A stretch of DNA of 64,000 bases from Myxococcales bacterium (GTDB lineage Bacteria; Myxococcota_A; Polyangia; Fen-1088), in the NCBI GenBank assembly GCA_031423255.1, contig JANPFD010000022.1, forward strand, positions 6,704 to 70,703, written 5' to 3'. Shown here piece by piece: positions 23,335 through 60,375 of the stretch; the stretch's first letter is position 1, and the number at the start of each line of letters is the position of its first letter. Made by a program: the position numbers and the translations under genes. The notes under the pieces are model-generated. The model made no database searches. It saw nothing but the letters and a program-made list of their open reading frames with translations, and had not been told where the DNA came from.

Positions 23335-24822
23335 TCAGCGCAGGTTCAGGCGGGCGCGCGTCGCCCAGAAGTTCCCGGTGTCGGCGATCTCGCCCAGGCC
23401 CGGGGCGGCGCGGGTGTCGATTCCCAGCGCGTCGCCCAGCGTGACCCAGAGTGAATCGATCTTCTGGCCGGCGTACACCGTTCCGGGCAGGCCGCTGCGC
23501 CCGAACAGCTCGGGCGATCCGGCATGGCCGGAGGTGCCGCCCGAGACGCGCAGGTGGCGTCCCGGTGTGATGATGCCGCCGCCACGTCCGGCCACGACGA
23601 TCGGCAGATCATGCACGTCGTGGGTGGCTCCGTGAGACATGGAGCCGGTGTAGACGGCCATGCAATTGTCCAGCAACGTGCCGCCGCCTTCGCCCGGGAG
23701 CGCCTTCAGCTTGCCCACCACACGGGCGTAGCGCTGGGTGTTCCACTCCTCGATGCAGCGCAGAGCGAGGATGCGCTCCTCGGCGGTGGCGGGGCTGTTC
23801 GGCGCCTCGCCGTCGACGGTGCCCTGGCTGTAGTGCGAAAGACCGTTGTGGTATTCGTGCGACCCCAGCACGAACTTCAGCCGGTCGCGCCTGGCAGCGT
23901 CGAGTGGCGTGCCGTCGCCGAGCGTCGCCGGTGGGGTGATGAAGCCGTACTTCATGCGCACCGTCTCGATGTCCGACTGCCAGGTGACCAGGCGGGTGAG
24001 ATCGCACTGGAACGCCAGCACCACCAGGTCGCCGATGAGATCCATCTGCTTCTCGAGGCTGCTGCCCGCCGGATAGGCGAAGGCGGCCTCCTGGTTCTTG
24101 CCACAGGTCGACGGCGGCAAGGCCAGCTGGCGCTGCACCTCCGTCAGACTCTGGAGGTATTCCGCCAGGCGCGCCTGATCCTCGCGGCCAAGCCGGGTGT
24201 TCAGGGACTTCGCCTGCGGCAGCACGAAATCCACCAGACCCTTGCGGTGGCGGATGGCGCGCGCAGCGGCTTCCATCGCCGCCGGGTCGGAGGCGCCGAA
24301 CAGGTCCAGGTACATCGCGTGCGGATCGGGGTTCTGGGGAGTGACGATGTAGTTCGTCGTCGAGGTCCAGGACATGAACATCTTCGACGCCTGGCCGTTG
24401 AGCGTCCGCCGTGTGCTCAGCTCGAGGGACTTGCGCCGTAGGCCCAGCTTGCGCAGGCGCGAGGAGAGGAACTGATCGTACGAAGGGCGGGCGACGATCT
24501 TGTCTTGCGACGTCGGACCGCCAGTCAGCATCTCGGCCTGGGGAGAGTGCGCGTCCTGCCCGGATGCTCGGTCGTGGTTGTCGATGCCCGACAGCACCAG
24601 GAGGTCCGATTTGTACGGATCGAGCGAACGGAGCGTCGGCGCGAGCGAGAACGGCATCTCCGGCACCGACGAGACCATCGATCGGCGGTAAAAGCCGTTC
24701 GGCGTGTTGAAGATCAAGAGCCGCACCGGACGGGCCTGGGCGCGTGCCTCCATGACTTCGAGGAACGGCAGCGCCAGGGACAGGCCGCCGCCGCGGAGCA
24801 TCGTCCGGCGTGAGAGCTTCAT
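23335..24822 (-). CDS. DUF1552 family protein with twin-arginine (Tat) signal - module A partner
   Basis: MKLSRRTMLRGGGLSLALPFL Tat motif. Conserved FQCDLTRLVT and C-terminal HDVHDLPIVVAGRGGG shared with three paralogs in this window. ATG 24822 overlaps the upstream stop. Confidence 0.85.
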   Translation of the reverse strand: MKLSRRTMLRGGGLSLALPFLEVMEARAQARPVRLLIFNTPNGFYRRSMVSSVPEMPFSLAPTLRSLDPYKSDLLVLSGIDNHDRASGQDAHSPQAEMLTGGPTSQDKIVARPSYDQFLSSRLRKLGLRRKSLELSTRRTLNGQASKMFMSWTSTTNYIVTPQNPDPHAMYLDLFGASDPAAMEAAARAIRHRKGLVDFVLPQAKSLNTRLGREDQARLAEYLQSLTEVQRQLALPPSTCGKNQEAAFAYPAGSSLEKQMDLIGDLVVLAFQCDLTRLVTWQSDIETVRMKYGFITPPATLGDGTPLDAARRDRLKFVLGSHEYHNGLSHYSQGTVDGEAPNSPATAEERILALRCIEEWNTQRYARVVGKLKALPGEGGGTLLDNCMAVYTGSMSHGATHDVHDLPIVVAGRGGGIITPGRHLRVSGGTSGHAGSPELFGRSGLPGTVYAGQKIDSLWVTLGDALGIDTRAAPGLGEIADTGNFWATRARLNLR

Positions 24823-26822
24823 GGCGTCCCTCCCCGGCGGGAGCGGAAGCTGCGGCCCGTCACCACCCGCCGCACCAGTTCCTTGAACGGGACGCGGTTG
24901 GCATCGGCAGACACCTGGTGCACGCCGCAGGCCTCCTGACCCGGGACCTGACGCCCGAGCGCGTAGACCATCAGACGTCGGCTGGCGCAGTTTCCGAGCG
25001 CCTGCTTGCCGGCCAGCACCTTCGCCAGCTGGGTGTGGTCCCTGAACGTCTCGCCCGTCGGCAGGTAGCCGCTGGCGTCCACCGGATTGCGCTTTGGCCC
25101 CTCGACGGTGCGGTATTTGCCCTGCGGACCGAAGTGCTCGAGACCGAAGCCGATCGGCTCCATGTTGGCGTGGCAGGAGATGCAGGTGCCCTGAGCGTGC
25201 ATCAACATCTGTTCTTTCTTTGGCAGGTCGAGGTTCCGGACCTTGTCGATGAGGGATTCCACCTCGGGCGGCGGCGGCGGTGGCGCCGAGCAGAGCAGGT
25301 TGTCGAGCACGTAGTGGCCGCGGATGACGGGCGCGGTCTCGATGTCGGGCGAGGACAGGGTGAGGAAGGCGGCCTGGGTCAGGATGCCGCCGACGCGCGC
25401 CGTACCCGCCGTCGGGACCTTGGCGAAAGCGGGGTCGCCCGCCGGCAGGCCGTAGTGCGTCCGCAGGGCGGCATCGACGAAGGTGAAGTCGGCGTCGACG
25501 AGGCGTGCGACCGGAAGCTGTGGGTTCGACAGAAGCTCCTGCATGAACAGCTCTGTCTCCTTCGCCATGCTGGTCCGCAGCGCCGGTGCGACCGTGTCCT
25601 CGTTGTCCAGCTCGCCGAGCCGCAGCCACTCGCGCGCGAATCCGCGCAGAAGCGCGCTCCGGCGCGGGCTGGCGTAGAGCCGGTCGAATTGAGCGGTCAG
25701 CACCTGCGCGTTTTTCAGCTGGCCCATGCCTGCCAGCCGGAACAGCTCGTCGTCGGGCATCGAGCTCCAGAGGAAGTAAGAGAGGCGCGTCGCCAGTTCG
25801 TGGTCGCCGAGGGCGCGTACCCCGGTGGCACCCGCGGGATCCAGCTCCACCTGGTACAGGAAGCTCGGCGTCAGCAGCACCGACTGGAACACCAGCTTCA
25901 TCCGCTCCTCGAAGATGGTGCCGAGAACGGTCTTGTCGTACTGGCCGAGCATCTCGGTCACCTCGGTAGCCGTGGCCGGCCGGCGGTAGGCACGCGGCAG
26001 GAAGCGCTCGAGGATCTCCTGCGCGCAGGCGCGCTCGTTGCCGGCAATCGGGCGCGAGCAGGCCATGGTCCTGGCGTAGGCGGCGTTGGTGGCGGCGCCG
26101 GCGAAGAAGGTGTCGACCGCGCGGATGCTGCCGTCGATCAACCCCTTGGTCAGCGTGTCGTTGATGAGATTCGAGGCCTCGTCGACGCGGGTGAAAGAAT
26201 AGGCGGTGGTCTCCGCGGGCAGCGCGGCGGCAGAGTTGAAGGTGTCGGGCAGGCCGAGCAGATCGCGTACGGTGTTGGCGTATTCGGTGCGCGTCAGGCG
26301 GCGCAGACCGTTCCAGGCGACGTCCGGCTCGCCGGGCAAGGAGTAGATCCACTCGCGGACGATGCGCAGCTCGTCGTTGGTCATGCGCGTGCCCGACGGC
26401 GGCATCTCCAGCGCCATGATCCGCTCGTCCATCCGGACCAGGCGGTCCATCTGTGCGCGCGCCGTGGCCTCATTTGCCAGGAGCTTGTCCATGGCGAACT
26501 TCCCGGACGGCGCCACACCCGAATGGCAGGTCACGCAATTGCGCACGAGGATCGGTTTGACCTGCTGCTCGAAGCTGATGGAGCTGTTGTCGACGCACAG
26601 CTTGGCCGGGACGAGCGTCGGGTTGCTCACCGGGTCGTTCGGGGGCGGAGGCATCCCGGGGCCCGGAGGGTTGAGGGGATTCAGCGGGTTCAGAGGATCG
26701 ACGGGCGGCGTCCCGTCGCTGTCGCCCGGGTCGCCTCCGATGTCGCCCACGCATGACGCAAGGATCGCTGCCAACCCCAAACAACAAAGATGGCGCACGG
26801 GCACGAGGCTCTCGTAAGGCAA
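24819..26822 (-). CDS. DUF1592/DUF1588/DUF1587/DUF1585-family protein with N-terminal CxxCH (Planctomycete cytochrome-c-like, PSCyt) - module A
   Basis: Lipoprotein-like N-terminus. CVTCHSG near the N-terminus, C-terminal CISCHANMEPIGFGLEHFG. Family hallmark ...TRTEYANTVRDLLG... and ...AYRRPATATEV.... Confidence 0.85.
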   Translation of the reverse strand: MPYESLVPVRHLCCLGLAAILASCVGDIGGDPGDSDGTPPVDPLNPLNPLNPPGPGMPPPPNDPVSNPTLVPAKLCVDNSSISFEQQVKPILVRNCVTCHSGVAPSGKFAMDKLLANEATARAQMDRLVRMDERIMALEMPPSGTRMTNDELRIVREWIYSLPGEPDVAWNGLRRLTRTEYANTVRDLLGLPDTFNSAAALPAETTAYSFTRVDEASNLINDTLTKGLIDGSIRAVDTFFAGAATNAAYARTMACSRPIAGNERACAQEILERFLPRAYRRPATATEVTEMLGQYDKTVLGTIFEERMKLVFQSVLLTPSFLYQVELDPAGATGVRALGDHELATRLSYFLWSSMPDDELFRLAGMGQLKNAQVLTAQFDRLYASPRRSALLRGFAREWLRLGELDNEDTVAPALRTSMAKETELFMQELLSNPQLPVARLVDADFTFVDAALRTHYGLPAGDPAFAKVPTAGTARVGGILTQAAFLTLSSPDIETAPVIRGHYVLDNLLCSAPPPPPPEVESLIDKVRNLDLPKKEQMLMHAQGTCISCHANMEPIGFGLEHFGPQGKYRTVEGPKRNPVDASGYLPTGETFRDHTQLAKVLAGKQALGNCASRRLMVYALGRQVPGQEACGVHQVSADANRVPFKELVRRVVTGRSFRSRRGGTP

Positions 26823-27978: not shown

Positions 27979-27989
27979 CTTCCAGGATA

Positions 27990-36422: not shown

Positions 36423-37364
36423 TTGACGATGGAGCCCGCGCCCACACCGTTGGTCGTCCTGACCGGGTTCCTCGGGGCGGGGAAGACCACGTTGCTCAAC
36501 CGGGTGCTCGGCAGCCAGCAGCGGTGGCGGCTGGCCGTCATCGTCAACGAGCTGGGTCGCATCGACATAGACGGCAAACTGCTGCGCGCGCGCGCCGGCG
36601 ACATGGTCGAGTTGACGGGCGGCTGCGTCTGCCACGAGGTGCGCACCATGGAGGAGCTGTGGAGCGGCCTCGACGAGGTGCTGGCGCGTTCGCGGCCCGA
36701 GCGGATCGTGCTCGAGACGACGGGAATCGCCGAGCCGCAGGCGATCCTCGAGGGTCTGGCGGCGCGCCCCGGACGCGTGGTGGTGACGGGCGTGGTGACC
36801 GTGGTCGACGCCGACGCCGGGGTCGACCAGCTCGAACGCCATCCGGAGGCGCGGGCGCAGGTCGAGGTCGCCGATGCGATCCTGCTGACGAAGATGGATC
36901 TGGCGCGGCCCGCGGCCGTGGCGGCGCTGCACCGGGCGCTGGACGCCTTGAACGCGAACGCCCCGCGTGCCGCTTTTCCACCGACGCCCGAGGCGACGGC
37001 CGAGCTCGTCCCGTGGCTGCTGGATCGAGCGGCGACCATGCGACCCGCCCGCGGCAGCCGCCCTCACGCGCACGGCCAGCTCGTGGCTGCTTCGTTCGTG
37101 GATGACGTTCCCCTGCTGGCCGAGCCGCTGGTCGCGCTGTGCGACCGGATGGGGTCGGCGCTGGTGCGGGTCAAAGGGTTCGTCCACCTGGCGGGCGAGG
37201 AGCGGCGCGGGTTCCTGGAGCGCGCCGGGAACCAGACCGGCCTGCGCCTCGGCGATCCCTGGCCGCCCGGCGCGCGTCGCAGCGAGCTGGTGTTCATCGG
37301 CGAGGGGCTCGACCCGGGCGATCTCCGGCGCGCGATCTGGGCCTGCCGTGCGAGGCAGCCGTGA
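36423..37364 (+). CDS. CobW/HypB/UreG-family (COG0523) metallochaperone GTPase
   Basis: Walker A GFLGAGKTTLLN and metal-binding GCVCHE (CxCC-like) motif. C-terminal CobW_C-like region. Confidence 0.8.
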   Translation: MTMEPAPTPLVVLTGFLGAGKTTLLNRVLGSQQRWRLAVIVNELGRIDIDGKLLRARAGDMVELTGGCVCHEVRTMEELWSGLDEVLARSRPERIVLETTGIAEPQAILEGLAARPGRVVVTGVVTVVDADAGVDQLERHPEARAQVEVADAILLTKMDLARPAAVAALHRALDALNANAPRAAFPPTPEATAELVPWLLDRAATMRPARGSRPHAHGQLVAASFVDDVPLLAEPLVALCDRMGSALVRVKGFVHLAGEERRGFLERAGNQTGLRLGDPWPPGARRSELVFIGEGLDPGDLRRAIWACRARQP

Positions 37365-42624: not shown

Positions 42625-42663
42625 CGTCAACGCCGGGGCAGGGTGGCGTGGTATTGACGGGTC

Positions 42664-44875: not shown

Positions 44876-44914
44876 CACCATCCCGCGGAGCGCGGCCTGC
44901 TACACTTCGCGCGC

Positions 44915-49158: not shown

Positions 49159-50454
49159 TTAGACCAGCCCCGCCAGCCGGCCGGTGCTGTCGCCGAACGT
49201 ATCCACCGGCACACCGATCCGGTCCAGCAGGGAGACGTACAGGTTGTTCAGCGGGAGCTTCTCGTACCTGAGATGGCGGCCCGGCTTGACGGTGCCGCCG
49301 CCGCGCCCGGCCAGGACCACGGGCAGGTCGTCGTGGTTGTGGCGGTCGCCGTCGCCGATGCCGCTGCCGTAGACGATCATCGAGTTGTCCAGCAGCGTGC
49401 CGTCCCCCTCGCCGATCGACTTCAACTTCTCCAGCAGGTAGGCCAGTTGCGTGGCGTGGAAGCGGTTGATGCGCGAGATCTTCTGCAGCTTCTCGGGGTT
49501 GCGGCCGTGGTGGGACAGCTCGTGGTGCCCCTCGGGGATCTCCAGGTGCGGGTAGCTCTTGTTGCTGCCGGCGTTCGCTACCAGGAAGGTGGCGATGCGG
49601 GTGATGTCGCTCTGGAACGCCACCACCAGCAGATCGCACATCAGGCGGATGTGTTCCTGGTTGTCGCTCGGGATCTCCTCCGGCCGCCCGAAGGCAGGCG
49701 CGTCGACGGGCGGCATCTGCCCGAAGCGCGCGATTCGCTGCTCGATCTCGCGCACCGCCGTCAGGTACTCGTCCATCTTGCGGTTGTCGGTCTTGCCCAG
49801 CCGAGGCTTGAGGGACTCGAGATCCCGGGCCACGAAGTCGAGGATGCTGCGCTTCTGGCGATCGCGCTTGGGGTCCACACCCATGCCGAACAGGCGGTCG
49901 AACACCAGCGACGGGTCCACCTCCTTCGCCAGCGGCATCGTGTCTGACTTCCATGCCAGGTTCGACGAGTAGGCGCAGGAGTAGCCCGAGTCGCAGTTCC
50001 CGGACTGCGCGCCGCGATCGACGCCCAGCTCCAGAGACGGCAGGCGCGTCAGATGGCCCAGCTTCTGCGCCGCCACCTGGTCCGCCGAGATCCCGTTCTT
50101 GATGTTCGCGCCGTTGGTCTTGTGGGGGTGCGCGCCGGTCAGGAACGCGCCCAGAGCCCGCGCGTGGTCGCCCGGTCCGTCGCCGAGCGCGAAGGCATTC
50201 CGTTGCTCGAGGCCCGTGAGGACGGTGATCTCGTCCCGGACACTGCGCAGCGGCTCCAGGATCGACGGCAACGTGAAGTCCGTCCCCGCCTTGCTGGGCG
50301 TCCAGTCCGGCATGTGCACGCCATTCGGGACGTAGAGGACGGCGAAACGCAGCGGCGCCCTGGGACGCTTCGGCGCTGCCATCGCCTCGAGCCACGGCAA
50401 CGAGACCCCGATTCCCACCCCACGCAGCAATGTCCGTCGGGATAGCGACTTCAT
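49159..50454 (-). CDS. DUF1552 family Tat-signal protein - module C partner
   Basis: MKSLSRRTLLRGVGIGVSLPWL. FQSDITRIATFL. HDDLPVVLAGRGGG. ATG 50454 overlaps the upstream stop. The N-terminal 171 codons of the track ORF are rejected. Confidence 0.85.
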   Translation of the reverse strand: MKSLSRRTLLRGVGIGVSLPWLEAMAAPKRPRAPLRFAVLYVPNGVHMPDWTPSKAGTDFTLPSILEPLRSVRDEITVLTGLEQRNAFALGDGPGDHARALGAFLTGAHPHKTNGANIKNGISADQVAAQKLGHLTRLPSLELGVDRGAQSGNCDSGYSCAYSSNLAWKSDTMPLAKEVDPSLVFDRLFGMGVDPKRDRQKRSILDFVARDLESLKPRLGKTDNRKMDEYLTAVREIEQRIARFGQMPPVDAPAFGRPEEIPSDNQEHIRLMCDLLVVAFQSDITRIATFLVANAGSNKSYPHLEIPEGHHELSHHGRNPEKLQKISRINRFHATQLAYLLEKLKSIGEGDGTLLDNSMIVYGSGIGDGDRHNHDDLPVVLAGRGGGTVKPGRHLRYEKLPLNNLYVSLLDRIGVPVDTFGDSTGRLAGLV

Positions 50455-52709
50455 GGTGTGACCTCTCCGCGCCTCTTCAAGAATGGATCGCTGGTGACGA
50501 TCGCCAGCACCAGGCTGGAGAAGCTGTCCCCAGCCTCGAGCGTGCGATCCGCGATGTCGTCGATGGCCGCCCGGTCGAACGGCTCGGTGCCGCGGCCCGT
50601 GGCGTAGGTCAGCATCTTCTGCGCGAACGAGCGCCGGAACGCCGCCTCCTTGGTCTTCAGGACCGCCTTCAGCTCGGTCGGGCCGCGGAACGACTGGCCG
50701 TTTGGCAGCACCCCCGACGAATCGACCGGTGTGCCGCTCTCGTCCTCTTCCGTGCGCCACCCGCCGACGGCGTCGAAGTTCTCGAGACCGAAGCCGAGGG
50801 GATCCATCTTGCGGTGGCAGACGGCGCAGTTCGGGTCGGCGCGGTGCTGCTCCAGTTGCTGGCGCATCGTTCCCGCCAGCTGCTTCTTCTTCGTGTCCTC
50901 GATCAGGTCCGGGACGCCGGGTGGCGGTGGCGGTGGTGGCGTCCCGAACAGTTGCTCCAGCACCCACTTGCCCCGTTTCACCGGCGACGTCCGCGTCGGG
51001 TTCGACGTCACCGTCAGCACGCTGGCCTGGGTCAGCACGCCGCCGCGGGGCGTTCCCGCCGTGGAGACGCGACGGAACTCCGATCCCTCGACACCGTCGA
51101 TGCCGTAGTGGCGCGCCAGGCGCTCGTTCAGATAGGTGAAGTCCGCCTCGAGGAACGTGCCGAGGGGCAAGTCCTCGCGCATCACCGCTTCAAAGAAGAG
51201 CTCGGTCTCCTTCATCATCGACGCTCGCAGGTTGTCGTCGAACCCGGGGAAGCGCCGCCGCGACGGCCTGATGCTCGACAGGTTCCGGACCTGCAGCCAC
51301 TGGGTGGCAAAGTTCTCGACCAGGGCGTGGGCCTTCCGGTCCTGCAGCATCCGCTTGACCTGCGCACCCAGCACCTCGGGCTGGTGCAGGCTGCCGTCGG
51401 CGGCCTGCCGGAAAAGTTCGTCGTCCGGCATTCCGCTCCACAGGAAATACGACAGCCGTGAAGCCAGCTCCCAGTCGTTGATCGGGTGCGCTTCGCCGGC
51501 CGGATCGCCCGGATCCAGCTCGACCCGGAAGACGAAGTGCGGCGAGACGAGGATGGCCCGCAGCGCCACCTGCATCCCGCGCTCGAAGGTGTCGCCCTCC
51601 TCGACCGCCTGCTCGACGAACGTCACCAGCCGGTCCAGTTCCGGGCGGGCGACGGGACGCCGGTAGGCGCGCGTCGCCAGGGTCGCCAGGAATTCCCGCG
51701 CGTCGTCGCGGTAAGTCTCGGCGCCGGGGTGTCGAGGGATGATCCGGGTGTGACTGTCGGGCAGCGCGCGCGCCTTCACCCTCAGTGGCCCCTCGATGCG
51801 CAAAAAATCGATCGAAACCTGGCGCTTGGGCGCCGGATTCGCGAACGCCAGCTCGATCCGGTGCCGCCCCCCGTCGACGGCGAACTTGGTCGTGTACACC
51901 GACGAGCCGCGCACCTCGATGGTCTTTTTCTCCTGGCCATCCACCTTCAGGACAAGCCGCGCCCCGCGCCCCGCGGCCTTCACCTTGAACATGTACTCGG
52001 CCTGGGTCGGGAACTCGTGATGCGCGCGCACCGAGCCGGCGGCACTCATCACCAGCTTGCCGTTCTTGATCGCGCTGCCGGCGGGGGTTGGCGCCAGCTT
52101 CTCCACCTCGATCGTGTCGCCCCGGAACTTCGGGTCGATATCGGCGACGATCACCTTCTCGGCGATCCGGTCGGCGGCCGCGAGATAGCGCTCGACGAGC
52201 AGCGGCGGCATCGATAGCACGTCGCCGATGTTGTCGAAGCCGTAGCCGACGTCGTCGGAGGGAAACTGGTTCGCGGGCTTGAGGTCGACGCCCAGCAGAT
52301 CGCGGATGGTGTTGTTGTACTCGGCGCGGTTCAGCCGCCGGATGGTCACCCGACCCGGGTCGCGCTTGCCGTCCGCCGCGGCGCGGCTCTGCGCCCAGTC
52401 GATCCAGGCCATCAGGCTTTGGACCTCGGCCGCGGTCGGTTGCGGCTTCTCCTCGGGCGGCATCTCGCGTGCCTCCAGCCGCTCGGCCACGGTCTGCCAG
52501 ACGTGGATGTTCTTGAGCAACGCCGTCTCGTCCGCCCCGCGGAACGCCTCGAAGCTCAGGTCCCCTTTCTTTTGGTCACCCCCGTGGCAGGACCCGCAGT
52601 ACTTGTCGAGCAGGGGGACCATCTCGCGACCGAAGTCGGCCGCCTGGGCACTGCCACCGGCGAGCACCACAGACGCTACGCGGCACAAAGAAGCAGCCAG
52701 GCGAATCAC
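50451..52709 (-). CDS. DUF1592/DUF1588/DUF1587/DUF1585-family protein with N-terminal CxxCH (PSCyt-like) - module C
   Basis: Signal peptide. CGSCHGG at the N-terminus. RRLNRAEYNNTIRDLLG, AYRRPVARPELDRL. C-terminal CAVCHRKMDPLGFGLENFD. Confidence 0.85.
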   Translation of the reverse strand: MIRLAASLCRVASVVLAGGSAQAADFGREMVPLLDKYCGSCHGGDQKKGDLSFEAFRGADETALLKNIHVWQTVAERLEAREMPPEEKPQPTAAEVQSLMAWIDWAQSRAAADGKRDPGRVTIRRLNRAEYNNTIRDLLGVDLKPANQFPSDDVGYGFDNIGDVLSMPPLLVERYLAAADRIAEKVIVADIDPKFRGDTIEVEKLAPTPAGSAIKNGKLVMSAAGSVRAHHEFPTQAEYMFKVKAAGRGARLVLKVDGQEKKTIEVRGSSVYTTKFAVDGGRHRIELAFANPAPKRQVSIDFLRIEGPLRVKARALPDSHTRIIPRHPGAETYRDDAREFLATLATRAYRRPVARPELDRLVTFVEQAVEEGDTFERGMQVALRAILVSPHFVFRVELDPGDPAGEAHPINDWELASRLSYFLWSGMPDDELFRQAADGSLHQPEVLGAQVKRMLQDRKAHALVENFATQWLQVRNLSSIRPSRRRFPGFDDNLRASMMKETELFFEAVMREDLPLGTFLEADFTYLNERLARHYGIDGVEGSEFRRVSTAGTPRGGVLTQASVLTVTSNPTRTSPVKRGKWVLEQLFGTPPPPPPPGVPDLIEDTKKKQLAGTMRQQLEQHRADPNCAVCHRKMDPLGFGLENFDAVGGWRTEEDESGTPVDSSGVLPNGQSFRGPTELKAVLKTKEAAFRRSFAQKMLTYATGRGTEPFDRAAIDDIADRTLEAGDSFSSLVLAIVTSDPFLKRRGEVTP

Positions 52710-52752: not shown

Positions 52753-54036
52753 CTAAAGAGGCCGCTCGACCAGCCGGTACAGCCCTGGCGGGGCGTCCAG
52801 AATGACAATCGTCGTGACCTGGACGGCGAAAGCCGATATCCCATCCTTGACGACCTCGTACGGTTGTCCCTCCTCCCTCGTCGCTTCGACGGCGTAACGC
52901 TTGCCCGGGACCAGGACCGTTCGCAGCGTGAGCGTACCGTCCGTATACGTGAAGCTCGATCCCCACGGCTGGGCCAGAGGTTCGCCGATGAACAACCCTT
53001 CACCGGGCCAGAGCACCGTCTTCCAGTACGCTTCGACGATGGTCGCTCCGCGCAAATAGTGCGACAGCAGCACGCCGGCGTTGGGAAACTTCGTCGGGAA
53101 AGCACAAGGCTCCACGACCGTTCCGTAGCTGGCCGTGACGCCCGCCTCCAGCCAGCGCACCGCGCTCATCTGAGAGCTACTCGGCACGCGTCCACCGAAA
53201 GAGGTCATGTGATCCGCGACGGCACCCGGCAGATAGCTGTTCGTGCCGATGGCGTCGACGCTGGCCAGTGAGGTGAAATAGAAGAGCACGTCCGTCTTGT
53301 CACGAACATGGTTGGCTCCGTTTCCCATGGAGTTGTCGATGTAGTCCAGACTGAGCGACATCTGGCCGTTCCACGTCGTGACGGTCTGCTTGAACTCCGG
53401 CCACCGGGCGCTGCGGGCTGCATCGTTGGTCCTGATGAAGTACCCGTTCCCTCCCGGATAGGTCGCATCGGCCGCGACCCCCTTGTCGACGAGGCGCCGG
53501 GCGTCGTCGACGGACGCGGCCGCCAGCATCATCGCAGGGCGAATCCCGAGGTCGTCATGCGGACGCGTCGAGCTCGAGTCGTAGTAGGCCACCGGGGCCG
53601 TCGCGCTGCAGGTCCCTGTGCCTACCTTGCAATATTTGGCGTCGAAGCCCAGCGCCACCGCGGAGGTCATGGACATGCAATCGACCCGGTAGGGAGTGGT
53701 CCAGGTGATCGCATAGGCCTGAACCTCGGGCGGAGTGGCCGCGTCGATCTGGGCCTTGAGGGGAGCGAAACCATCTCGCGCAAGTACGGCGCCCGAAGGG
53801 TCGAACGCCAGGCGGATCACATTCTGTGGAGGAATTCTTCGCTTCTCCTGGTAGTACGCCGCCACCGCCACGGATTGCGGGTCGTTCGTGTTGACGAGGA
53901 TCGCAAGCTCTGCCGAGGTCACCGCCTGGCGTGGGAAGAGCACCCGCACCGACCCCGCAGCGCCATCGCTTTCGCTTTCGCGCACGCATCCCCCGAGGAG
54001 GAGGAGAACCATGATGGGCGTTCGCAAGCCGGTCAC
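52753..54036 (-). CDS. Hypothetical secreted lipoprotein
   Basis: MVLLLLGGC lipobox. 427 aa, no assignable catalytic motifs. Confidence 0.5.
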   Translation of the reverse strand: MTGLRTPIMVLLLLGGCVRESESDGAAGSVRVLFPRQAVTSAELAILVNTNDPQSVAVAAYYQEKRRIPPQNVIRLAFDPSGAVLARDGFAPLKAQIDAATPPEVQAYAITWTTPYRVDCMSMTSAVALGFDAKYCKVGTGTCSATAPVAYYDSSSTRPHDDLGIRPAMMLAAASVDDARRLVDKGVAADATYPGGNGYFIRTNDAARSARWPEFKQTVTTWNGQMSLSLDYIDNSMGNGANHVRDKTDVLFYFTSLASVDAIGTNSYLPGAVADHMTSFGGRVPSSSQMSAVRWLEAGVTASYGTVVEPCAFPTKFPNAGVLLSHYLRGATIVEAYWKTVLWPGEGLFIGEPLAQPWGSSFTYTDGTLTLRTVLVPGKRYAVEATREEGQPYEVVKDGISAFAVQVTTIVILDAPPGLYRLVERPL

Positions 54037-54039
54037 CTG

Positions 54040-56796
54040 CTACTCCCGGATGAGCTCCACAGGTCCTATCAGGCCAGCGGGCGGCGGGTCTTTGGTGACT
54101 TTCTTCTCCTGCGGGTCGGGAAACCGATTTCCGTAGGCAGCGCGGAGAGGACGGAGGTCCTCGTCGGGCAGGCCGAGGAGACGATTGAGCATCAGGTTGC
54201 CCACGGTCACTTTCACCGTGTTTTTGCCCTGTTTCAGCAGCGGACCTATCTCCACGTCGTAAGGAGGCAGCCAGACTCCGCCGGCCAGCTTGTCGTTCAC
54301 CCAGACCTCGCCCGCTTCCCGCACCTCGTGGAAACGAAGCTTGATAGACCCTCCCGCCGGCTCGTCCCAGGCGAAGGTCGTCTCGTAGGTCGCCTGGCCC
54401 GAGAAGGCTTTCCCGCCGGGCCATTGAATCCAGGACACCAGGTCGCCCGTCAGCACGGGGCGCGGCGCATCGGGGCCACTGAAGGTGACCTTCCACTCCG
54501 CGCCGTCCCATTTGCGGACCGATTCGCGGGACGACACGTCGGTTGCATCGAGGCGAACAAGTCTCGACCGAGATTCTGCTGTCGCACGTCGAGGGTAGAG
54601 CAAGAACGTGGAGCCGCGCGCGGCCAGATGGACTGGCAAGGGCCTGGCCGTCCCCCCGGGAGCAAGCCTCACACGGTGTTCGCCCGTTGCGGGATCGAGC
54701 TGGAGCACCGGCGTCTTCTGATGACCGAAGGTGAAATCGGCGGGGACGTCGGCGGTGTTGGCGACGAAGACGATGTCGTAGTCGGAGGTCCTTCGTTGCA
54801 CCGAGGCAACGCTCGGCTCCGATCTCAGCGGCGCAATGTGCGCGTTGCGGGCCCCCTCGGTGAAAACTGCGGAGGACGTGACGTCCGTTGCTGCGCCAAC
54901 GAAGGCGGTCTTCCCGCGTCCGACGTATGAGCCGCCAAAGAGTTCCCGGGAAAGTTGCTTCAGCCGAAGATCACGCGCCCGGTTCCCCGAAGCGCCACCG
55001 AACGATCTGTCCGGCGTGCGGCCCGTGGCGATGAGCGTGCCGCCTTGCCTCACGAACTCCGCGAGCTTCTCCAGAGCCTCCAGTTCCATCCCCTCCACGT
55101 CCGGCAGGATGACGACGGAATAGGCCCCGTCGCCACAGATCAGCTTGCCGCCCTTGATACTCGCCTGCCGGATGAGCGTCCAGAAGTCGATTCCGTCGAA
55201 GTTGTAGCCCCGAGTCACCAGCGTGTGGATGAGATCGGAGCGGTGCTTGCGGGCATTGACCAGGCTGAACTCACCGGTCTTCTCGCCGGTCACGAAATGG
55301 TCGCGCAGGAGAAAGTCGAGGGGCATCTGGGCCACGGGGCCGCGCGCAAACGCCTGCTCGACCGGAAGGTAGAGCGCGATCTGCGCGATGGGCTTGCCCT
55401 GTCGAAGCAGCCACTGGCTCCGGTTGACGTACTGAACGAGATACTTGAAGAAGGGCCACTGCGGGTTGTTCTGGTTCATCACCGGGCCGAAGTAGGGCAG
55501 CCAGCCGGGCGGCGCGACGCTTGGCGGAGAGTATGAGAAACCCACTCCGGTCAGGTCGTTGATGCCTGCAAGGAAATGAAAGTCCGAGGCGAGTTTCAGG
55601 TCGCGCAGGCTATCGACGAGACGGTTCGGGATCCCGGTCCAGGTCCACGCCTCCGCCCCGATGACGCGCTTTGCGGCGAGGTGTCCGCCCGAGGATGCGT
55701 AACGCGAGAAGGAGAAGCCCATCCACTCGTACTGCTCTCCGGTCGGGACGTCGATGTGGCGGAACGAGGTGAGAGGGCTGGGTGGCGTGCCGTAGGCCTC
55801 CATTTCCAACTTCACGCCGTGCTTGCCGGACCACGCGCCGAGCGGCTTCGTGAAGCGTTCCTCGTTCAACTCGGCCAGGGTGCGCCAGAAGTCGAAACGG
55901 AGGTCGGGTGACGTCACGCCTTTGTCGTCGAACAGTTCGACAAGGCGAGAGACAAGGTCGTAACCACGGCGCTTCAGGAACACCTGAGGCAGGTCGTGGG
56001 TCCAATTCGCGTTGTAGACCTCAAGGCTGTCGCAGAAGATCGACTCCACCAGCCCCGGCGCGGCCCGGAGCAGTGGGCTCACGTTCGCCTCCAGCCATCG
56101 CTCGAGCGCGGGCGTGTTGTAGTGATCGAGCACGTAACCGTCCGCCCCGAGGGCTGCGCGCTTGACCTTCATATAGGTCGGGCCCGTCACGAAAAGCGTG
56201 AGTGGTTCGTTGCCATGTGGCCGTTCATCCCCGATGGCGGGCAGGTCGATCCGTCGCTGCTGACGCCACGCCGCCAGGATCCGCTCGCCCTCCTGAAGCG
56301 TCGGCATCGCATACGCGGTGCCATCGGCTGTGGGAGGCACCGCCACCCGGCGGATACGCTGGGCGGCGTCCTGCAATCTGACGGTCGGTCCGCCGAACGG
56401 CCACCCGGTCCCGCCTTCCACACTGAATCGCAGTCCCAATGACTTCGCCTTCTTCGCGGCATACGCGAAGTTGTCCAGGAATTCCCTCGATAGAAAAGCC
56501 TGGTTCTTGATTCCCCTCGCCGGATCGTCGATTGCGACGGGATAGAACGGTATGAGCGTCACGCCACCCACACCGGCCTGCCTCAGCAACGTCAGTTGAT
56601 GGTCGATGCCCTCATGGTTCCACGCCGGTCCGAATACGTGCCAGTACATGCGCATCCGCGCCTCGGGCGGCGGGTTCAGGAAGCCCTCGAGCAGGGGATC
56701 GGCCTTCTGCTGCGCGTGTGCGTTCGGCTGGGCGGCCTGGGTGGCCAGCCATGCGGTCAGGAGAAGACCCCGACGACCGGCGTTTGATGTTGTCAC
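54040..56796 (-). CDS. Large secreted glycoside-hydrolase-like protein with C-terminal galactose-binding-like (GH2 sugar-binding type) domain
   Basis: Signal peptide. N-terminal (beta/alpha)-barrel-like region (MRMYWHVFGP...GVGGVTLIPFYP). C-terminal ...LKQGKNTVKVTVGNLMLNRL... resembles GH2 N-terminal jelly-roll. Family assignment is tentative. Confidence 0.55.
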   Translation of the reverse strand: MTTSNAGRRGLLLTAWLATQAAQPNAHAQQKADPLLEGFLNPPPEARMRMYWHVFGPAWNHEGIDHQLTLLRQAGVGGVTLIPFYPVAIDDPARGIKNQAFLSREFLDNFAYAAKKAKSLGLRFSVEGGTGWPFGGPTVRLQDAAQRIRRVAVPPTADGTAYAMPTLQEGERILAAWRQQRRIDLPAIGDERPHGNEPLTLFVTGPTYMKVKRAALGADGYVLDHYNTPALERWLEANVSPLLRAAPGLVESIFCDSLEVYNANWTHDLPQVFLKRRGYDLVSRLVELFDDKGVTSPDLRFDFWRTLAELNEERFTKPLGAWSGKHGVKLEMEAYGTPPSPLTSFRHIDVPTGEQYEWMGFSFSRYASSGGHLAAKRVIGAEAWTWTGIPNRLVDSLRDLKLASDFHFLAGINDLTGVGFSYSPPSVAPPGWLPYFGPVMNQNNPQWPFFKYLVQYVNRSQWLLRQGKPIAQIALYLPVEQAFARGPVAQMPLDFLLRDHFVTGEKTGEFSLVNARKHRSDLIHTLVTRGYNFDGIDFWTLIRQASIKGGKLICGDGAYSVVILPDVEGMELEALEKLAEFVRQGGTLIATGRTPDRSFGGASGNRARDLRLKQLSRELFGGSYVGRGKTAFVGAATDVTSSAVFTEGARNAHIAPLRSEPSVASVQRRTSDYDIVFVANTADVPADFTFGHQKTPVLQLDPATGEHRVRLAPGGTARPLPVHLAARGSTFLLYPRRATAESRSRLVRLDATDVSSRESVRKWDGAEWKVTFSGPDAPRPVLTGDLVSWIQWPGGKAFSGQATYETTFAWDEPAGGSIKLRFHEVREAGEVWVNDKLAGGVWLPPYDVEIGPLLKQGKNTVKVTVGNLMLNRLLGLPDEDLRPLRAAYGNRFPDPQEKKVTKDPPPAGLIGPVELIRE

Positions 56797-56804: not shown

Positions 56805-56818
56805 CCCCGGCGGCACAG

Positions 56819-57874
56819 TCACGGCCGCGGGCGGCGCCGAGGCCGCTCGACCGGGGCGCCGGTCGACTCGCGCTCCACCAGCTCGACGGGCAGGATCTGG
56901 TGCCGGGGACGGAAGGGGACCTGACTGGAGGCCTGCTCGAGCACGCGCAGCACCGCCTGCGCGCCCAGCTGGGCTTTCGGCTGGCGTACGGTCGTCAAGG
57001 AGGGGGACAGGAACGGCGCGAATGAATCGTCGTCGTAGCCCACCAGCAAGACGTCGCGCCCCACCTGAAGGCCGCGCTCGGCGAACGCCCGCATCGCGCC
57101 GAGCGCGTGCAGATCGTTGGTGCAGAAAAGTCCGCGCGGGGCAGGGTGAGTCTCGAGGTACGCAAGCACGGCGGCATGGCCGTAGGCCTCGGGACGGGCG
57201 TGCAGGGTGCGATCGCCAGGGATGAAGCACGGGCGCCGCTTGTGCCGTTGGATGGCGCGGATGTAGCCCGCGCGGCGGGCTGCTACCGCGCTGTGGTCCG
57301 GCGAGGCCGACGCCTCCAGCAGGGCGGCGTCTACGCCGCGCGCCAGCAGATGATCGGTGGCGGCTGAAGCTCCCGCTTCGTGGTCCGCGATGACGAAGGT
57401 GTCTCGCGTCGTGAAGTGGTGGTCGACGAAAACCACCGGTCGCCGATCGGACACCCGGCGCCATAGCGCGAGATTCAGCCGGGTCACCACCGGTGTGGCG
57501 ACCACGCCGACGACGTCCAGACTGATCAGGTGTCGCAACATCTGCGCCTCGAGTCCCGGGTCGTCCCCGGAGCAGCGGTAGACGAGATCGTGATCGTGAC
57601 GTAGGGCCTCGCGCTCGGCCGCCTCCACGATCTCGGCGTAGAAGGCATTCGTCAGCGACGAGACCAGGAGGCCGATGGTGCGGCTGCGGCCCGATACCAG
57701 CTTGCGTGCGTAAAGGTTGGGAACGTAGTCGAGCCGCTCGCACGCCGCCTCGATGCGCCGGCGCACCCCAGGCGAGCCCGCCGATGGATCGTTGAGCACC
57801 TTGGAAGCCGTGACACGCGACACGCGCGCGAGGCGCGCCACGTCGGACATGGTGACGCGGGCGGAGCGGATCAT
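56819..57874 (-). CDS. LacI-family transcriptional regulator
   Basis: HTH VTMSDVARLARVSRVTASKVLN and periplasmic-binding-protein-like sugar-binding core. Confidence 0.85.
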   Translation of the reverse strand: MIRSARVTMSDVARLARVSRVTASKVLNDPSAGSPGVRRRIEAACERLDYVPNLYARKLVSGRSRTIGLLVSSLTNAFYAEIVEAAEREALRHDHDLVYRCSGDDPGLEAQMLRHLISLDVVGVVATPVVTRLNLALWRRVSDRRPVVFVDHHFTTRDTFVIADHEAGASAATDHLLARGVDAALLEASASPDHSAVAARRAGYIRAIQRHKRRPCFIPGDRTLHARPEAYGHAAVLAYLETHPAPRGLFCTNDLHALGAMRAFAERGLQVGRDVLLVGYDDDSFAPFLSPSLTTVRQPKAQLGAQAVLRVLEQASSQVPFRPRHQILPVELVERESTGAPVERPRRRPRP

Positions 57875-57916
57875 GACCCGAGCATCTTACAAGAGCGCCT
57901 GTCGTCGCCCCCAGTT

Positions 57917-58693
57917 TCATCGGGCGCAGTAGCCTCCATCGACCAGCAGCGACGCTCCGGTGATATAGGACGCCTCGTCGGATGCCAGGAACAGGGCCGC
58001 AGCGGCGATTTCCTCCGGCTCGCCTATGCGACCGAGCAGGATCTTCGGGCATTCCTCGGCGAGGAAGGCGTCATGATCGATGCCGTTGTCGGCGATCACC
58101 TTGCGCAGCGCCGGCGTCCACACTGCGCCGGGGCACAAGCAATTGGCGCGGATCCGGTGGGGCGCGAGGTCCATCGCCATGTTGCGGGTCATCTGGACCA
58201 CCGCCGCCTTGGTCGCGCTGTACGTCGTGAGCCGGGGTTGCGCGACGAAGGCCGAGATGGAGCCCAGGTTGACGATGGCCCCCCCGCCTCGCCGCTTCAT
58301 CTGGCGAACCGCGTGCTTGCTGGTCAAGGCCGTGCCCGTCACGTTGACCACCAGCGAGCGATGCCAGTCGTCCGCCGTCGCTTCCAGATCCTTCATGACG
58401 AACACGGCGGCGCAGTTGACCAGCACATCGATGCCGCCATATCGTGCGGCCGCCGCGTTACAGGCGCGCTCCACCGAGGTCTCGTCGGCGACATCGATGC
58501 TGGCGAAGGACGCCTCGCCGCCGGCGGCAGCGATCGCATTGCACACGCGCTCGCCGTCTGCGTCGTTGCGGTCTGTCACCAGCACCCGCGCCCCTTCACG
58601 GGCGAATCGTCGGGCTATGGACTCGCCGATCCCTGAAGCCGCGCCGGTGACGAGAGCGATCTTGCCTTCGAGGCGTCGTGTGAGTTCTTGCAT
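57917..58693 (-). CDS. Short-chain dehydrogenase/reductase (SDR) family oxidoreductase
   Basis: TGAASGIG cofactor motif, NCAAV, catalytic YSATKAAV (YxxxK). Confidence 0.9.
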   Translation of the reverse strand: MQELTRRLEGKIALVTGAASGIGESIARRFAREGARVLVTDRNDADGERVCNAIAAAGGEASFASIDVADETSVERACNAAAARYGGIDVLVNCAAVFVMKDLEATADDWHRSLVVNVTGTALTSKHAVRQMKRRGGGAIVNLGSISAFVAQPRLTTYSATKAAVVQMTRNMAMDLAPHRIRANCLCPGAVWTPALRKVIADNGIDHDAFLAEECPKILLGRIGEPEEIAAAALFLASDEASYITGASLLVDGGYCAR

Positions 58694-58694
58694 C

Positions 58695-58710
58695 CCGGAA
58701 GGTACTTTAC
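58695..58710. promoter_or_regulatory. Perfect 16-bp palindrome CTTTACACGTGTAAAG in divergent SDR / DUF1592-module-D intergenic region; candidate LacI-family operator
   Basis: Read directly. Left half CTTTACAC is the exact reverse complement of GTGTAAAG. It sits 0-50 bp from both start codons, with the LacI gene adjacent. Confidence 0.4.
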
Positions 58711-58740
58711 ACGTGTAAAGCCACCGAGTATAGTGGCTCG

Positions 58741-60375
58741 ATGGTCAGCAGTCGTCTCGCGCTCCTGATCCCCGCCTTGTTCCTGTCGGCGGCATCGTGC
58801 ATGGGCCAGATCGCCGGCGGCGATGACGGTGAAACCAGCGTCGAGCGAGCGACGCCCGGATCGATCCGTGTCTGGCGTCTCACGACCCAGCAGTACGACA
58901 ACACCGTTCGCGATCTTTTGGGGGACACCAGCAGGCCGGCTCGCCTTTTCACGCCGGACATCGGCGGCACCGGCTTCACGAACAACGCCGATCTGCTCGG
59001 AGTCAATCCGGCGCAGGCGGCCGAGTTCGCGGCAAGCGCGGCGCGACTCGCTTTCGATGCGGTCACCTCCAGGCTCGGCCGCATCTTCCCTTGCCCCGCC
59101 TCCCAGCTGACCGATGCCGGGTGTGCGCGCCAGTTCATCGAGACCTTCGGCCTTCGCGCTTTCCGGCGCCCGCTGGGCGCGGACGAGGTGGCCGCTTACC
59201 TCGGGCTCTACGCCCAGGGTTCACAGACGATCGACGCGACAGCGGGGCTGTCGCTGGTCATCGAAACGATGCTGCAGTCCCCGCACTTCCTCTACCGGAG
59301 CGAGATTGGCGATGGCCGCCCGGACTCTGGCGGTGAAGTGCGTCTCACCCCCCACGAGCTCGCCAGCGCTCTGTCGTATCACTTCGTGGGCAGCATGCCC
59401 GACGAGATCCTGTTCGCGGCGGCCAGCAGTGGCAGCCTGAGCACACCGGCGGGCCTGGGCGCGGAGGTCGAACGGCTGGCGGCCAGGGACGATGCACGCG
59501 CCCCGATGCTCGACTTTTACCGACAGCTCCTGGACTACGACGACGTCGGAAGTGTCACCCGCGACCCGAAGCTGTTCCCGAAGTTCGACTCGGTTCTGGC
59601 GAGCATGCAGCGTGAGACGCAAACGTTCATCGAGAAGAACGTCTTCGAGGGTGATGCTCGACTCGATACGTTGCTGACGGCGCCGCACAGCTACATCGAC
59701 GCCAACCTCGCTCCCATCTACCGGCTGCCCAAGCCGAACGGAACGACGATGGTGCGGGTCGACCTCGATCCCGGCCAGCGCGCCGGACTGCTCACCCAGC
59801 CCGGTTTCTTGACCATCCACTCCCTGCCCGACGAGACGTCGCCGCCGCGCCGGGGCAAGTCAGTGCTGGAGAAGATTCTCTGCCTGCACATCCCGCCACC
59901 GATCGACAACATTCCCGATCCGCCGTCTCCCGCGGGCAAGGAGAGCACCCGGCAGAAGTTCGAGCGCCTCACCGGTCCTCCTGTGTGCATGGGGTGCCAT
60001 CGGCTACTCAACCCCGCCGGCTTCTCCTTCGAAGCTTATGACGTCGTCGGGGCGTGGAGGACGGTCGACAACACGCTCCCCGTCGACACCCGGGTCGACC
60101 TGACTGGCATTCCCGGTGTCGACGGCCCGGTGGCCGGCGCCGTGGACCTGGTCAGGAAGATCGCCCAAAGCCGCGAGGCGGGGGAGTGCCTTGCGCGCCA
60201 GACGGTGCGGCATGCCTTCGGCCGCGAAACGGGCAGTGACGACGACGGACTCGTCTCAAAGATGTTAGCGCGCTTTCAAGCGACTGGCGGCAATGTGCGC
60301 GAACTGTTCGCGTCCGTGGCCGGCACCCGGGCCTTTACCCACCGGCGTATGGGGTTTTCGGCAGGTGTGCAATGA
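58741..60375 (+). CDS. DUF1592/DUF1588/DUF1587-family protein (short form) - module D
   Basis: Signal/lipobox LFLSAASC. WRLTTQQYDNTVRDLLG, AFRRPLGADEV. C-terminal CMGCHRLLNPAGFSFEAYD. Confidence 0.8.
   Translation: MVSSRLALLIPALFLSAASCMGQIAGGDDGETSVERATPGSIRVWRLTTQQYDNTVRDLLGDTSRPARLFTPDIGGTGFTNNADLLGVNPAQAAEFAASAARLAFDAVTSRLGRIFPCPASQLTDAGCARQFIETFGLRAFRRPLGADEVAAYLGLYAQGSQTIDATAGLSLVIETMLQSPHFLYRSEIGDGRPDSGGEVRLTPHELASALSYHFVGSMPDEILFAAASSGSLSTPAGLGAEVERLAARDDARAPMLDFYRQLLDYDDVGSVTRDPKLFPKFDSVLASMQRETQTFIEKNVFEGDARLDTLLTAPHSYIDANLAPIYRLPKPNGTTMVRVDLDPGQRAGLLTQPGFLTIHSLPDETSPPRRGKSVLEKILCLHIPPPIDNIPDPPSPAGKESTRQKFERLTGPPVCMGCHRLLNPAGFSFEAYDVVGAWRTVDNTLPVDTRVDLTGIPGVDGPVAGAVDLVRKIAQSREAGECLARQTVRHAFGRETGSDDDGLVSKMLARFQATGGNVRELFASVAGTRAFTHRRMGFSAGVQ

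Follow-up and report, generated by a model that had tools for sequence, protein, structure and literature searches.

Four paralogous PSCyt3/DUF1552 gene pairs in a Myxococcales contig and the likely heme c site of their large subunits

The four gene pairs and their surroundings

The window analyzed here, that is, the whole stretch of 64,000 nucleotides taken from a Myxococcales contig, was found by profile searches of all its open reading frames (ORFs) to contain exactly four large proteins of one family and four DUF1552 partners. The large proteins, designated A to D, were delimited from the ORF list and Pfam matches, supplemented by AF2 models for B and C. Two of them are long forms, A (24819-26822, minus strand, 667 aa) and C (50451-52709, minus strand, 752 aa), and two are short forms, B (46164-47885, plus strand, 573 aa, with a single CxxCH) and D (58741-60375, plus strand, 544 aa). 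They are paralogues that share 31-37% pairwise identity in a MAFFT alignment. The closest named relatives come from Archangiaceae, Polyangiaceae and Byssovorax, and the best match in a genome scan for homologues was a Polyangiaceae MAG at 38% identity. A weak MYXO-CTERM match was also obtained; judged by it and by the nearest named relatives, the host appears to have a high-GC genome of the Myxococcota type and not to be a planctomycete.

All four large proteins contain five Pfam domains above their cut-offs in the same order, PSD3-PSD5-PSD4-PSCyt3-PSD2 (DUF1587/1595/1592/1588/1585). PSCyt3 (DUF1588, PF07627; cut-off 27 bits) scored 89.9 bits in A, 109.6 in B, 131.2 in C and 93.7 in D, and the further matches in A reached 111.8 (PSD4), 59.1 (PSD5), 42.6 (PSD3) and 37.9 bits (PSD2). 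Pfam searches gave no match to PSCyt2 or PSD1 in any of A to D, no NCBIfam model matched the large proteins or the DUF1552 partners, and a PDB sequence search with C returned no match. A to D are ordinary members of the large, catalogued PSCyt3/DUF1592 family of exported bacterial proteins. In A, a lipobox-like signal (ending in LAAILASC) is followed by a cytochrome-c-like N-terminal domain and the five family domains, while B has a lipobox-like signal directly followed by these five. C consists of a Sec signal, a PSCyt1/class-I-like cytochrome c domain, PSD3, a CBM36-like insert and then PSD5-PSD4-PSCyt3-PSD2; both Cys of the PSD2 pair are missing together in this protein. The hydrophobic N-termini of the large proteins, which were judged by eye, show LASC, AAGC or AASC or a plain signal: a lipobox-like Cys ends the signal in A, B and D, which look like lipoproteins, and AQA-AD is found in C. 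A Sec-type export signal, as expected for a c-type cytochrome apoprotein, was thus read in each of the four.

Each large gene is followed by a DUF1552 gene with a twin-arginine signal, recognizable by an N-terminal SRR or PRR motif. The partner of A lies at 23335-24822 on the minus strand (166.7 bits to HXXSHH, MKLSRRTMLRG), that of B at 47882-49156 on the plus strand (226 bits, SPRREFLQG), that of C at 49159-50454 on the minus strand (349.5 bits, SLSRRTLLRG) and that of D at 60372-61808 on the plus strand (185.4 bits, TSRRAFS). HXXSHH/DUF1552 corresponds to PF07586, the cut-off of which is 30 bits, so that scores of 166-350 are far above it. The stop codon of the large gene and the start codon of its partner overlap as ATGA at all four junctions, which are preceded by GGAGG-like sites. 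Such an arrangement is not restricted to the window, as 66 of 80 external loci, distributed over six phyla, have a DUF1552 gene immediately after the large gene. Coupling in the four pairs together with this conservation suggests that the large protein and DUF1552 form a stoichiometric complex.

Searches for remote homologues of the DUF1552 subunit revealed nothing about its fold. A Pfam search at E<=10 with a partner returned HXXSHH only, and PDB profile searches yielded nothing relevant, the lone weak match being to HEPN (E 0.0096) over a helical stretch and probably spurious. An hhalign comparison with the E. coli sulfatase AslA, in which the LDNT…SDNG / …LDLAG region was aligned, gave a probability of just 3.5%, and membership of the alkaline-phosphatase/sulfatase superfamily is therefore not claimed.

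The adjacent genes include a GH106-like rhamnosidase, a LacI regulator, a polysaccharide lyase and an esterase; no LPMO gene was found among the window ORFs scanned. In addition, the insert of C (approximately aa 196-307; 51789-52124, minus strand) is predicted to be a beta-sandwich of the CBM36/CBM6/CBM35 type, and the model clearly assigns it a CBM36-type fold. Carbohydrate redox chemistry, with substrates derived from carbohydrates, is suggested for the module by gene context (the neighboring genes for a glycoside hydrolase, a lyase and an esterase) and by one CBM, the insert of C. Links between the family and CBMs, as well as a cellulose-growth defect of cbp2D mutants, have been published (PMC5615132, PMC8981238, PMC12542752).

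CxxCH motifs in the window and in the wider family

A preliminary description of this DNA had quoted six CxxCH-containing peptides, and a six-frame search located all of them, each with one occurrence. Four belong to the PSCyt3 domain: CISCHANMEPIGFGLEHFG in A (25128-25184, minus strand), CAGCHRLMDSIGLGFESYD in B (47499-47555, plus strand; C446, C449 and H450), CAVCHRKMDPLGFGLENFD in C (50772-50828, minus strand) and CMGCHRLLNPAGFSFEAYD in D (59986-60042, plus strand). In the MAFFT alignment of A to D they occupy identical columns, as had been proposed, and the stretch matched by PSCyt3 includes the motif (in B, for instance, this stretch is residues 376-471). The consensus given at that time, CxxCH-x3-P-x-GF-x-E-x-[FY], needed correction, because none of the four peptides matches it when read literally, whereas CxxCH-x4-[PS]-x-G-[FL]-x2-E-x-[FY] matches all four. 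Only the two Cys, the His, one Gly and one Glu are invariant in A to D, B having Ser for Pro and Leu for Phe. The agreement among the four motifs reflects homology rather than coincidence, and its meaningful test is conservation beyond the window.

The other two peptides lie near the N-termini of the long forms, namely CVTCHSG of A (26517-26537, minus strand; CVTCH at 26523-26537) and CGSCHGG of C (52578-52598, minus strand; CGSCH at 52584-52598). No CxxCH other than these six sites occurs in window open frames of more than 200 codons, so a second, N-terminal motif is indeed confined to A and C and missing from B and D. Pfam and alignment placed the motif of A in a cytochrome-c-like domain (aa 91-159; 26346-26552, minus strand) that has CVTCH and, downstream, the Met of an MPP motif, and placed that of C, with additional support from the helix pattern of the model, in an N-terminal cytochrome c domain (approximately aa 26-113; 52371-52634, minus strand) with M83-P84-P85. 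The domain of C scored 32.8 bits to PSCyt1 (PF07635, cut-off 22) and 27.2 bits to Cytochrome_CBB3 (cut-off 27); that of A reached 25.3 bits to Cytochrome_CBB3, below the same cut-off of 27, and had no Pfam match to PSCyt1 at E<=0.01. C38, C41, H42, M83, P84 and P85 are invariant columns in an alignment including A and C. A class I cytochrome c would have a first helix that ends in CxxCH, a distal Met some 40 residues further along and a last helix at the C-terminal end. By its sequence (CxxCH…MPP), the domain around the extra motif of A and C is recognizable as a cytochrome c domain, putatively of this class-I-like type.

Conservation beyond the window was examined because the earlier reading would fail if the C-terminal CxxCH were absent from wider family members. 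Exactly one CxxCH was found in 120 of 120 relatives of B and exactly two in 119 of 119 relatives of C, and the motif was present in all 80 external loci examined. A profile comprising only PSD5 and PSD4, so that CxxCH was excluded from the query, matched 21,775 cluster representatives (clusters at 50% identity). Among the best 148 of these, 115 had enough C-terminus to be judged, and 101 of the 115 have CxxCH 70-99 residues downstream. The remaining 14 are visibly frameshifted and were set aside rather than counted as counter-examples, because inspection showed that, once the PSCyt3 region is reached, they read as out-of-frame sequence rich in Arg and Pro. The motif is thus conserved in every intact relative compared, including 101 of 101 representatives, and the earlier reading withstood this check. 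The proposed division into two architectural classes also proved to be real, and both are common (50 long forms with the extra CxxCH and 48 short forms among the 115). Members of the family occur in six phyla or more, among them Planctomycetota, Verrucomicrobiota, Acidobacteriota, Gemmatimonadota, Myxococcota and Gammaproteobacteria.

The C-terminal motif as a putative heme site

AF2 models of B (pLDDT 91.3, pTM 0.88) and C (pLDDT 89.9) place the C-terminal motif in a helical fold that was predicted with confidence (pLDDT ~90), in which CxxCH occupies the N-terminus of a long helix (444-460 in B). Structural prediction had been suggested as a check for a cytochrome-c-like pocket. The PSCyt3 region has no detected resemblance to any solved cytochrome c, and no solved relative of the helical fold was detected with these high-confidence models. 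The position of the motif on the helix does not discriminate between possible roles, because redox-active CxxC disulfides also occupy helix N-termini. Considering the family-wide occurrence of the motif and the N-terminal cytochrome c domain, covalent heme attachment at the C-terminal CxxCH is likely. In the literature found, no family member is reported with demonstrated heme binding, the function of the family being given as unknown (PMC5615132) and X132 as uncharacterized (PMC10916295).

If heme is bound, the motif His would be its proximal ligand, and a sixth ligand may be sought among the conserved residues nearby. Met at position +7 was rejected for this role because it is merely 73% conserved and is otherwise replaced by Leu or Ile. 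A His at position -6 is present in 331 of 336 sequences, and all four non-redundant sequences lacking it also have Asn for Asp at +8, one of them with Met in place of the His. This His, which co-varies with the Asp four residues past the motif His, is the strongest candidate for a sixth ligand. D is such a rare variant, with Leu for His -6 and Asn for the co-varying Asp, and no residue that might act as sixth ligand is strictly invariant in the family sequences compared.

These features also bear on a different explanation, in which the C-terminal CxxCH binds no heme. It would instead be a redox-active or structural disulfide, or a non-heme metal site in which the motif His and the upstream His join both Cys as ligands, and the large protein would serve the DUF1552 enzyme as a scaffold or in substrate binding, with no redox role of its own. 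The missing cytochrome-like fold, the location of the motif where helix 444-460 of the B model begins and the existence of a fourth conserved potential ligand in His -6 are all compatible with this explanation, as are the extracytoplasmic location of these proteins and the disulfide-like behavior of their other Cys pairs (C is without both PSD2 Cys). Nevertheless, we consider it improbable. The His directly after the second Cys, a hallmark of heme c that a disulfide would not need, is conserved in 338 of 340 sequences, as strictly as both Cys, and adjacent Cys and His residues that both ligate one non-heme metal are sterically unusual. Moreover, the contrast between Sec-type signals on the large subunits and Tat signals on their partners fits periplasmic heme attachment, and the fusion of a bona fide cytochrome c domain in half of the family implies an electron-transfer partner inside the module.

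Relation to known systems and possible function

Pfam and several papers already cover this motif and its domain, the pairing of the two genes and the existence of forms with one or two motifs. Proteins with PSCyt3 and PSD2-PSD5 that are paired with DUF1552 constitute the 'planctomycete-specific cytochrome c' group of Studholme et al. 2004, as far as the accounts in PMC5615132 and PMC2754498 relate it, and of He et al. 2017; the PSCyt3 domain is called "planctomycete-specific cytochrome c" after its CxxCH motif. Members of this group share with the window proteins an identical domain order, the CxxCH domain, the DUF1552 neighbor and optional N-terminal PSCyt1 and CBM inserts (PMC5615132). There is no essential difference from the window proteins, except that the host of the latter appears to be Myxococcota-like rather than a planctomycete. 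Mono- and di-motif architectures and speculation on a redox role were also published earlier (PMC5615132, PMC3542564, PMC10916295), the two classes having been described by He 2017 and probably also in CAZy as [X183][X132].

CAZy X183 and [DUF1587] X132 proteins, such as Cbp2D of Cellvibrio japonicus and TERTU_2913 and TERTU_3803 of Teredinibacter turnerae, are likewise CBM-associated, and [X183][X132] is the listed architecture of many planctomycete proteins, in agreement with the long form C (PMC8981238 supplement, PMC10916295). Only from published domain strings and an NCBI product name, we infer that X132 equals PSD5-PSD4-PSCyt3-PSD2; a CBM2-bearing Cellvibrio protein carries the name 'DUF1592 domain-containing' (PMC6004670). 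Cbp2D-type proteins differ in having CBM2/X158/FN3 extensions, which the window proteins lack, and X132 is said to be without a characterized homologue (PMC10916295). PSCyt1-PSCyt2-PSD1 and DUF1501 pairs (Kamneva et al. 2012, PMC3542564) are similar in that a large exported protein with cytochrome c motifs is encoded beside an often twin-arginine protein, with frequent CBM or protein-interaction inserts and heavy within-genome duplication (PMC3542564), whereas they possess PSCyt2/PSD1 instead of PSD3-5/PSCyt3/PSD2 and DUF1501 instead of DUF1552.

The window contains four paralogous copies of the known two-gene PSCyt3/DUF1552 module, in which the C-terminal CxxCH is probably a heme site of a redox enzyme. 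SorAB sulfite dehydrogenase and flavocytochrome c sulfide dehydrogenase consist of Tat-exported catalytic and Sec-exported cytochrome c subunits. They offer a functional analogy only, in the split export routes and in the gene for a heme c subunit beside that for a catalytic subunit, but no sequence or fold relationship was detected, and the 'cytochrome' subunit in the window is much larger than its partner and has a novel fold. The large subunit would be exported unfolded via Sec and receive its heme in the periplasm, most likely by covalent attachment at the C-terminal CxxCH in the large helical fold, while the DUF1552 subunit would be exported folded via Tat, probably with a metal or cofactor. 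Both subunits would come together as a redox enzyme, located in the periplasm or at the surface, that may act on carbohydrate-derived substrates. In the long forms A and C, the added His/Met class-I-like cytochrome c would pass electrons between the PSCyt3 heme and an outside partner, and the short forms B and D would rely on a separate electron carrier.

It is very improbable that the motif binds heme in a module that is no enzyme subunit but an electron shuttle, a role proposed for proteins of the Cbp2D type, which would supply oxidative enzymes outside the cell, for example LPMOs, while DUF1552 would assist as an accessory protein or in maturation. In favor of it, LPMOs can be reduced by the X183 cytochrome domain of Cbp2D in isolation (PMC8981238), and the CBM36-like module of C would provide an anchor to polysaccharide. 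Against it, results for T. turnerae X183 proteins are inconsistent with donation to LPMOs (PMC10916295), no LPMO gene was found in the ORFs scanned, the ATGA coupling suggests a stoichiometric complex and the short forms lack the relay domain.

As a discovery, these findings carry little weight, since they correctly rediscover a catalogued family. The family itself is very large, with more than 21,000 clusters, and has repeatedly been linked to polysaccharide use. The leads added here are models of a novel heme-motif fold, a candidate distal His with a co-varying Asp and a CBM36-type insert in C. A bolder and rather unlikely reading is that PSCyt3/DUF1552 proteins are an uncharacterized class of two-subunit periplasmic or surface carbohydrate redox enzymes, in which electrons would move between a heme c, tuned by a His-Asp pair and set in a novel fold, and a Tat-exported subunit with a metal or cofactor. 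Rare D-like variants without the His-Asp pair would then have an open or Met-ligated heme and perform different chemistry. If true, one genome would offer for dissection four natural variants that differ in the presence of the relay cytochrome, of the CBM and of the distal His, and the short lipoprotein forms B and D may serve as compact constructs for tests of heme binding.

Large proteins, their partners and putative export signals

Four large proteins of the PSCyt3/DUF1592 family, A to D, are encoded in the window, each followed directly by a gene for a DUF1552 (HXXSHH) partner: A at 24819-26822 (minus strand, 667 aa), B at 46164-47885 (plus, 573 aa), C at 50451-52709 (minus, 752 aa) and D at 58741-60375 (plus, 544 aa). 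Profile searches of all window ORFs returned exactly these four proteins and exactly four partners (166-350 bits). The large proteins are 31-37% identical to one another and have the common Pfam order PSD3 (DUF1587), PSD5 (DUF1595), PSD4 (DUF1592), PSCyt3 (DUF1588) and PSD2 (DUF1585), with each of the five domains above its gathering cut-off in all of them. In each, the PSCyt3 match encloses a C-terminal CxxCH. The six peptides quoted in the preliminary description were each found once by six-frame search, including the column-aligned C-terminal motifs of A (25128-25184, minus), B (47499-47555, plus), C (50772-50828, minus) and D (59986-60042, plus) and the N-terminal motifs of the long forms, CVTCHSG in A (26517-26537, minus) and CGSCHGG in C (52578-52598, minus). 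Window open frames of more than 200 codons contain no other CxxCH. The consensus formula offered there was mis-spaced and literally matched none of the peptides, the correct form being CxxCH-x4-[PS]-x-G-[FL]-x2-E-x-[FY]. A proline run (LLC/G-x-PPPPPP-x-V) is also conserved in A to D some 30 residues ahead of the CxxCH (approximately 410-420 in B); the Cys at the LLC/G position is invariant in B-type (myxobacterial) relatives and replaced by Gly in C-type (planctomycete and verrucomicrobial) ones.

In all four pairs, the partner ATG lies over the TGA of the large gene in an ATGA overlap (A, 24819-24822, minus; B, 47882-47885, plus; C, 50451-50454, minus; D, 60372-60375, plus) with a GGAGG-like site ahead, which suggests translational coupling of each pair. 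Of 66 loci outside the window that share this gene order, only 14 have an ATGA or GTGA junction. Read by eye, the partner N-termini carry twin-arginine motifs (SRRTML, PRREFL, SRRTLL and SRRAFS), and those of the large proteins are hydrophobic and signal-like, with lipobox-like ends (LASC, AAGC or AASC) in A, B and D and a plain signal in C (SAQA followed by ADF). P0269 (739 aa), the publicly available gene call for C, begins 13 codons downstream of the GTG at 52709 and thereby loses most of the predicted signal peptide; from that GTG, a Sec signal, MIRLAASLCRVASVVLAGGSAQA followed by AD, is plausible. A Cys pair in PSD2 (C513/C532 of B) is almost invariant in both subfamilies. Window protein C has lost both residues (approximately 691 and 712; FRRSFAQ and FDRAAID), and D retains the first and lacks the second; this pattern is in keeping with a disulfide in an extracytoplasmic protein.

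Conservation of the CxxCH and the long and short forms

A single CxxCH is present in each of the 120 nearest relatives of B in the database, and exactly two in 119 of 119 relatives of C. For motif-independent sampling, a profile built from the PSD5 and PSD4 regions only was searched against 1.84 billion cluster representatives, yielding 21,775 matches at E<=1e-3, of which the best 148 were taken; 115 of these had at least 130 residues beyond the match. A CxxCH lies 70-99 residues downstream of the match in 101 of the 115 representatives, whereas in the other 14 (approximately 12%; P0133, P0141, P0163, P0175, P0184, P0186, P0194, P0198, P0203, P0206, P0243, P0250, P0265 and P0266) the tail becomes Arg/Pro-rich and out-of-frame at that point. 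These are frameshifted gene calls of a high-GC family rather than natural variants, and their wrong-frame tails mimic motif loss. The motif is also kept in every large ORF of 80 genomic loci from Acidobacteriota, Gemmatimonadota, Planctomycetota, Verrucomicrobiota, Myxococcota and Gammaproteobacteria, a set that is partly biased because one of the DNA patterns used for fetching encoded the motif; DUF1552 is directly downstream in 66 of them. The proposed invariance thus survived in the wider family, where the C-terminal CxxCH is as conserved as any other feature. The original observation is real and its interpretation sensible; the motif is, at the same time, already named as the feature that defines a long-catalogued family, and the long/short dichotomy is already in published work.

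By N-terminus, the 115 representatives comprise 50 long forms with an extra CxxCH and 48 short forms without it, together with minorities of 14 long forms without and 3 short forms with one. The N-terminus of C matches PSCyt1 (32.8 bits, cut-off 22) and Cytochrome_CBB3 (27.2, cut-off 27), and that of A only Cytochrome_CBB3, just under threshold (25.3 against 27). C38, C41, H42 and M83-P84-P85 do not vary when C and A are aligned with 110 relatives; by sequence they are the ligands expected of a His/Met class-I-type cytochrome c, and the predicted secondary structure of C (helix 26-37, CxxCH 38-42, long helix 93-113) fits this class. The suggested division into mono-heme and di-heme variants is right as far as motif counts go, with two classes and an invariant CxxCH...MPP.

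Core structure and candidate heme ligands

AlphaFold2 with the family alignment gave confident models of B (pLDDT 91.3, pTM 0.88) and C (pLDDT 89.9). The B model is largely helical, with CxxCH 446-450 at the start of helix 444-460, and C contains a CBM36-like beta-sandwich insert. For the PSCyt3-containing core there is no solved relative, and no similarity to a known cytochrome c fold was seen.

When the cores of 340 members of the family are aligned, a single further conserved His stands out, H440 of B, six residues ahead of the first Cys (331/336); the Met at +7 reaches only 73% conservation, and there is no conserved Met elsewhere in the core. H440 is the candidate distal ligand of the putative heme. 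All four non-redundant sequences without H440 (of approximately 335) carry Asn for Asp454, with H440 replaced by Leu in D, Arg in P0012 and P0219, and Met in P0016, whereas Asp454 is kept in 328 of 331 sequences with H440 (Fisher p 7e-8, uncorrected for phylogeny; the four may be one clade). This co-variation points to a functional His-Asp pair beside the motif, compatible with His as the distal ligand, and suggests its presence at the putative heme. Protein D, with Leu at -6 (59968-59970) and Asn at +8 from the first Cys (60010-60012), would then represent a rare variant whose heme is ligated differently. Further invariant polar residues (R171, R172, E217, D250, R274, E321, R376, R400, E461, R470 and D479) could line an active site or interface.

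A covalent heme at the PSCyt3 CxxCH is likely, given the strict conservation of the His that follows the second Cys, the Sec-type export of the large subunit versus Tat export of the partner, and the frequent fusion of a relay cytochrome; a disulfide or a non-heme metal site is considered unlikely.

Gene context and proposed function

Pairs B and C have carbohydrate-related genes as neighbours. On the minus strand, C and its partner are the last genes of a closely packed run, in which they follow a GH106-like alpha-L-rhamnosidase relative (54040-56796) and a TIGR03790-family protein (52753-54036); a LacI-type regulator (56819-57886, minus) and an SDR (57917-58744, minus) lie upstream. Pair B, on the plus strand, is preceded by an esterase (42658-43854), by a polysaccharide lyase whose tail weakly matches MYXO-CTERM (43613-44875) and, directly ahead of the pair, by a rhomboid (44876-46045); a second rhomboid-family membrane protease gene is located at 37106-38224 (plus).

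Several architectures of PSCyt1-3 with PSD1-5 have been reported (He et al. 2017, PMC5615132), and for the parallel PSCyt1/2-PSD1 and DUF1501 modules electron transfer to sugars or proteins was proposed (Kamneva et al. 2012, PMC3542564). In the CAZy-oriented literature, Cbp2D of Cellvibrio japonicus and proteins of Teredinibacter turnerae carry X183, a class I cytochrome c of solved structure, followed by DUF1587 and then X132, and the listing [X183][X132] is given for many proteins of planctomycetes (PMC8981238, PMC10916295). From published annotations, X132 probably corresponds to the PSD5-PSD4-PSCyt3-PSD2 module. A CBM2-bearing Cellvibrio protein is named 'DUF1592 domain-containing' by NCBI (PMC6004670), and loss of cbp2D by mutation leaves growth on insoluble cellulose poor (PMC8981238, PMC12542752). 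On the favoured reading, the large subunit and its DUF1552 partner would form a redox enzyme of two subunits, located in the periplasm or at the surface, with substrates derived from carbohydrates; that the module is purely an electron shuttle to separate oxidative enzymes seems slightly less probable than a disulfide or non-heme metal site. The PSCyt3/DUF1592 family is an attractive uncharacterised system, for which B and D, as short lipoprotein-type forms, would be convenient constructs for heme-binding work.
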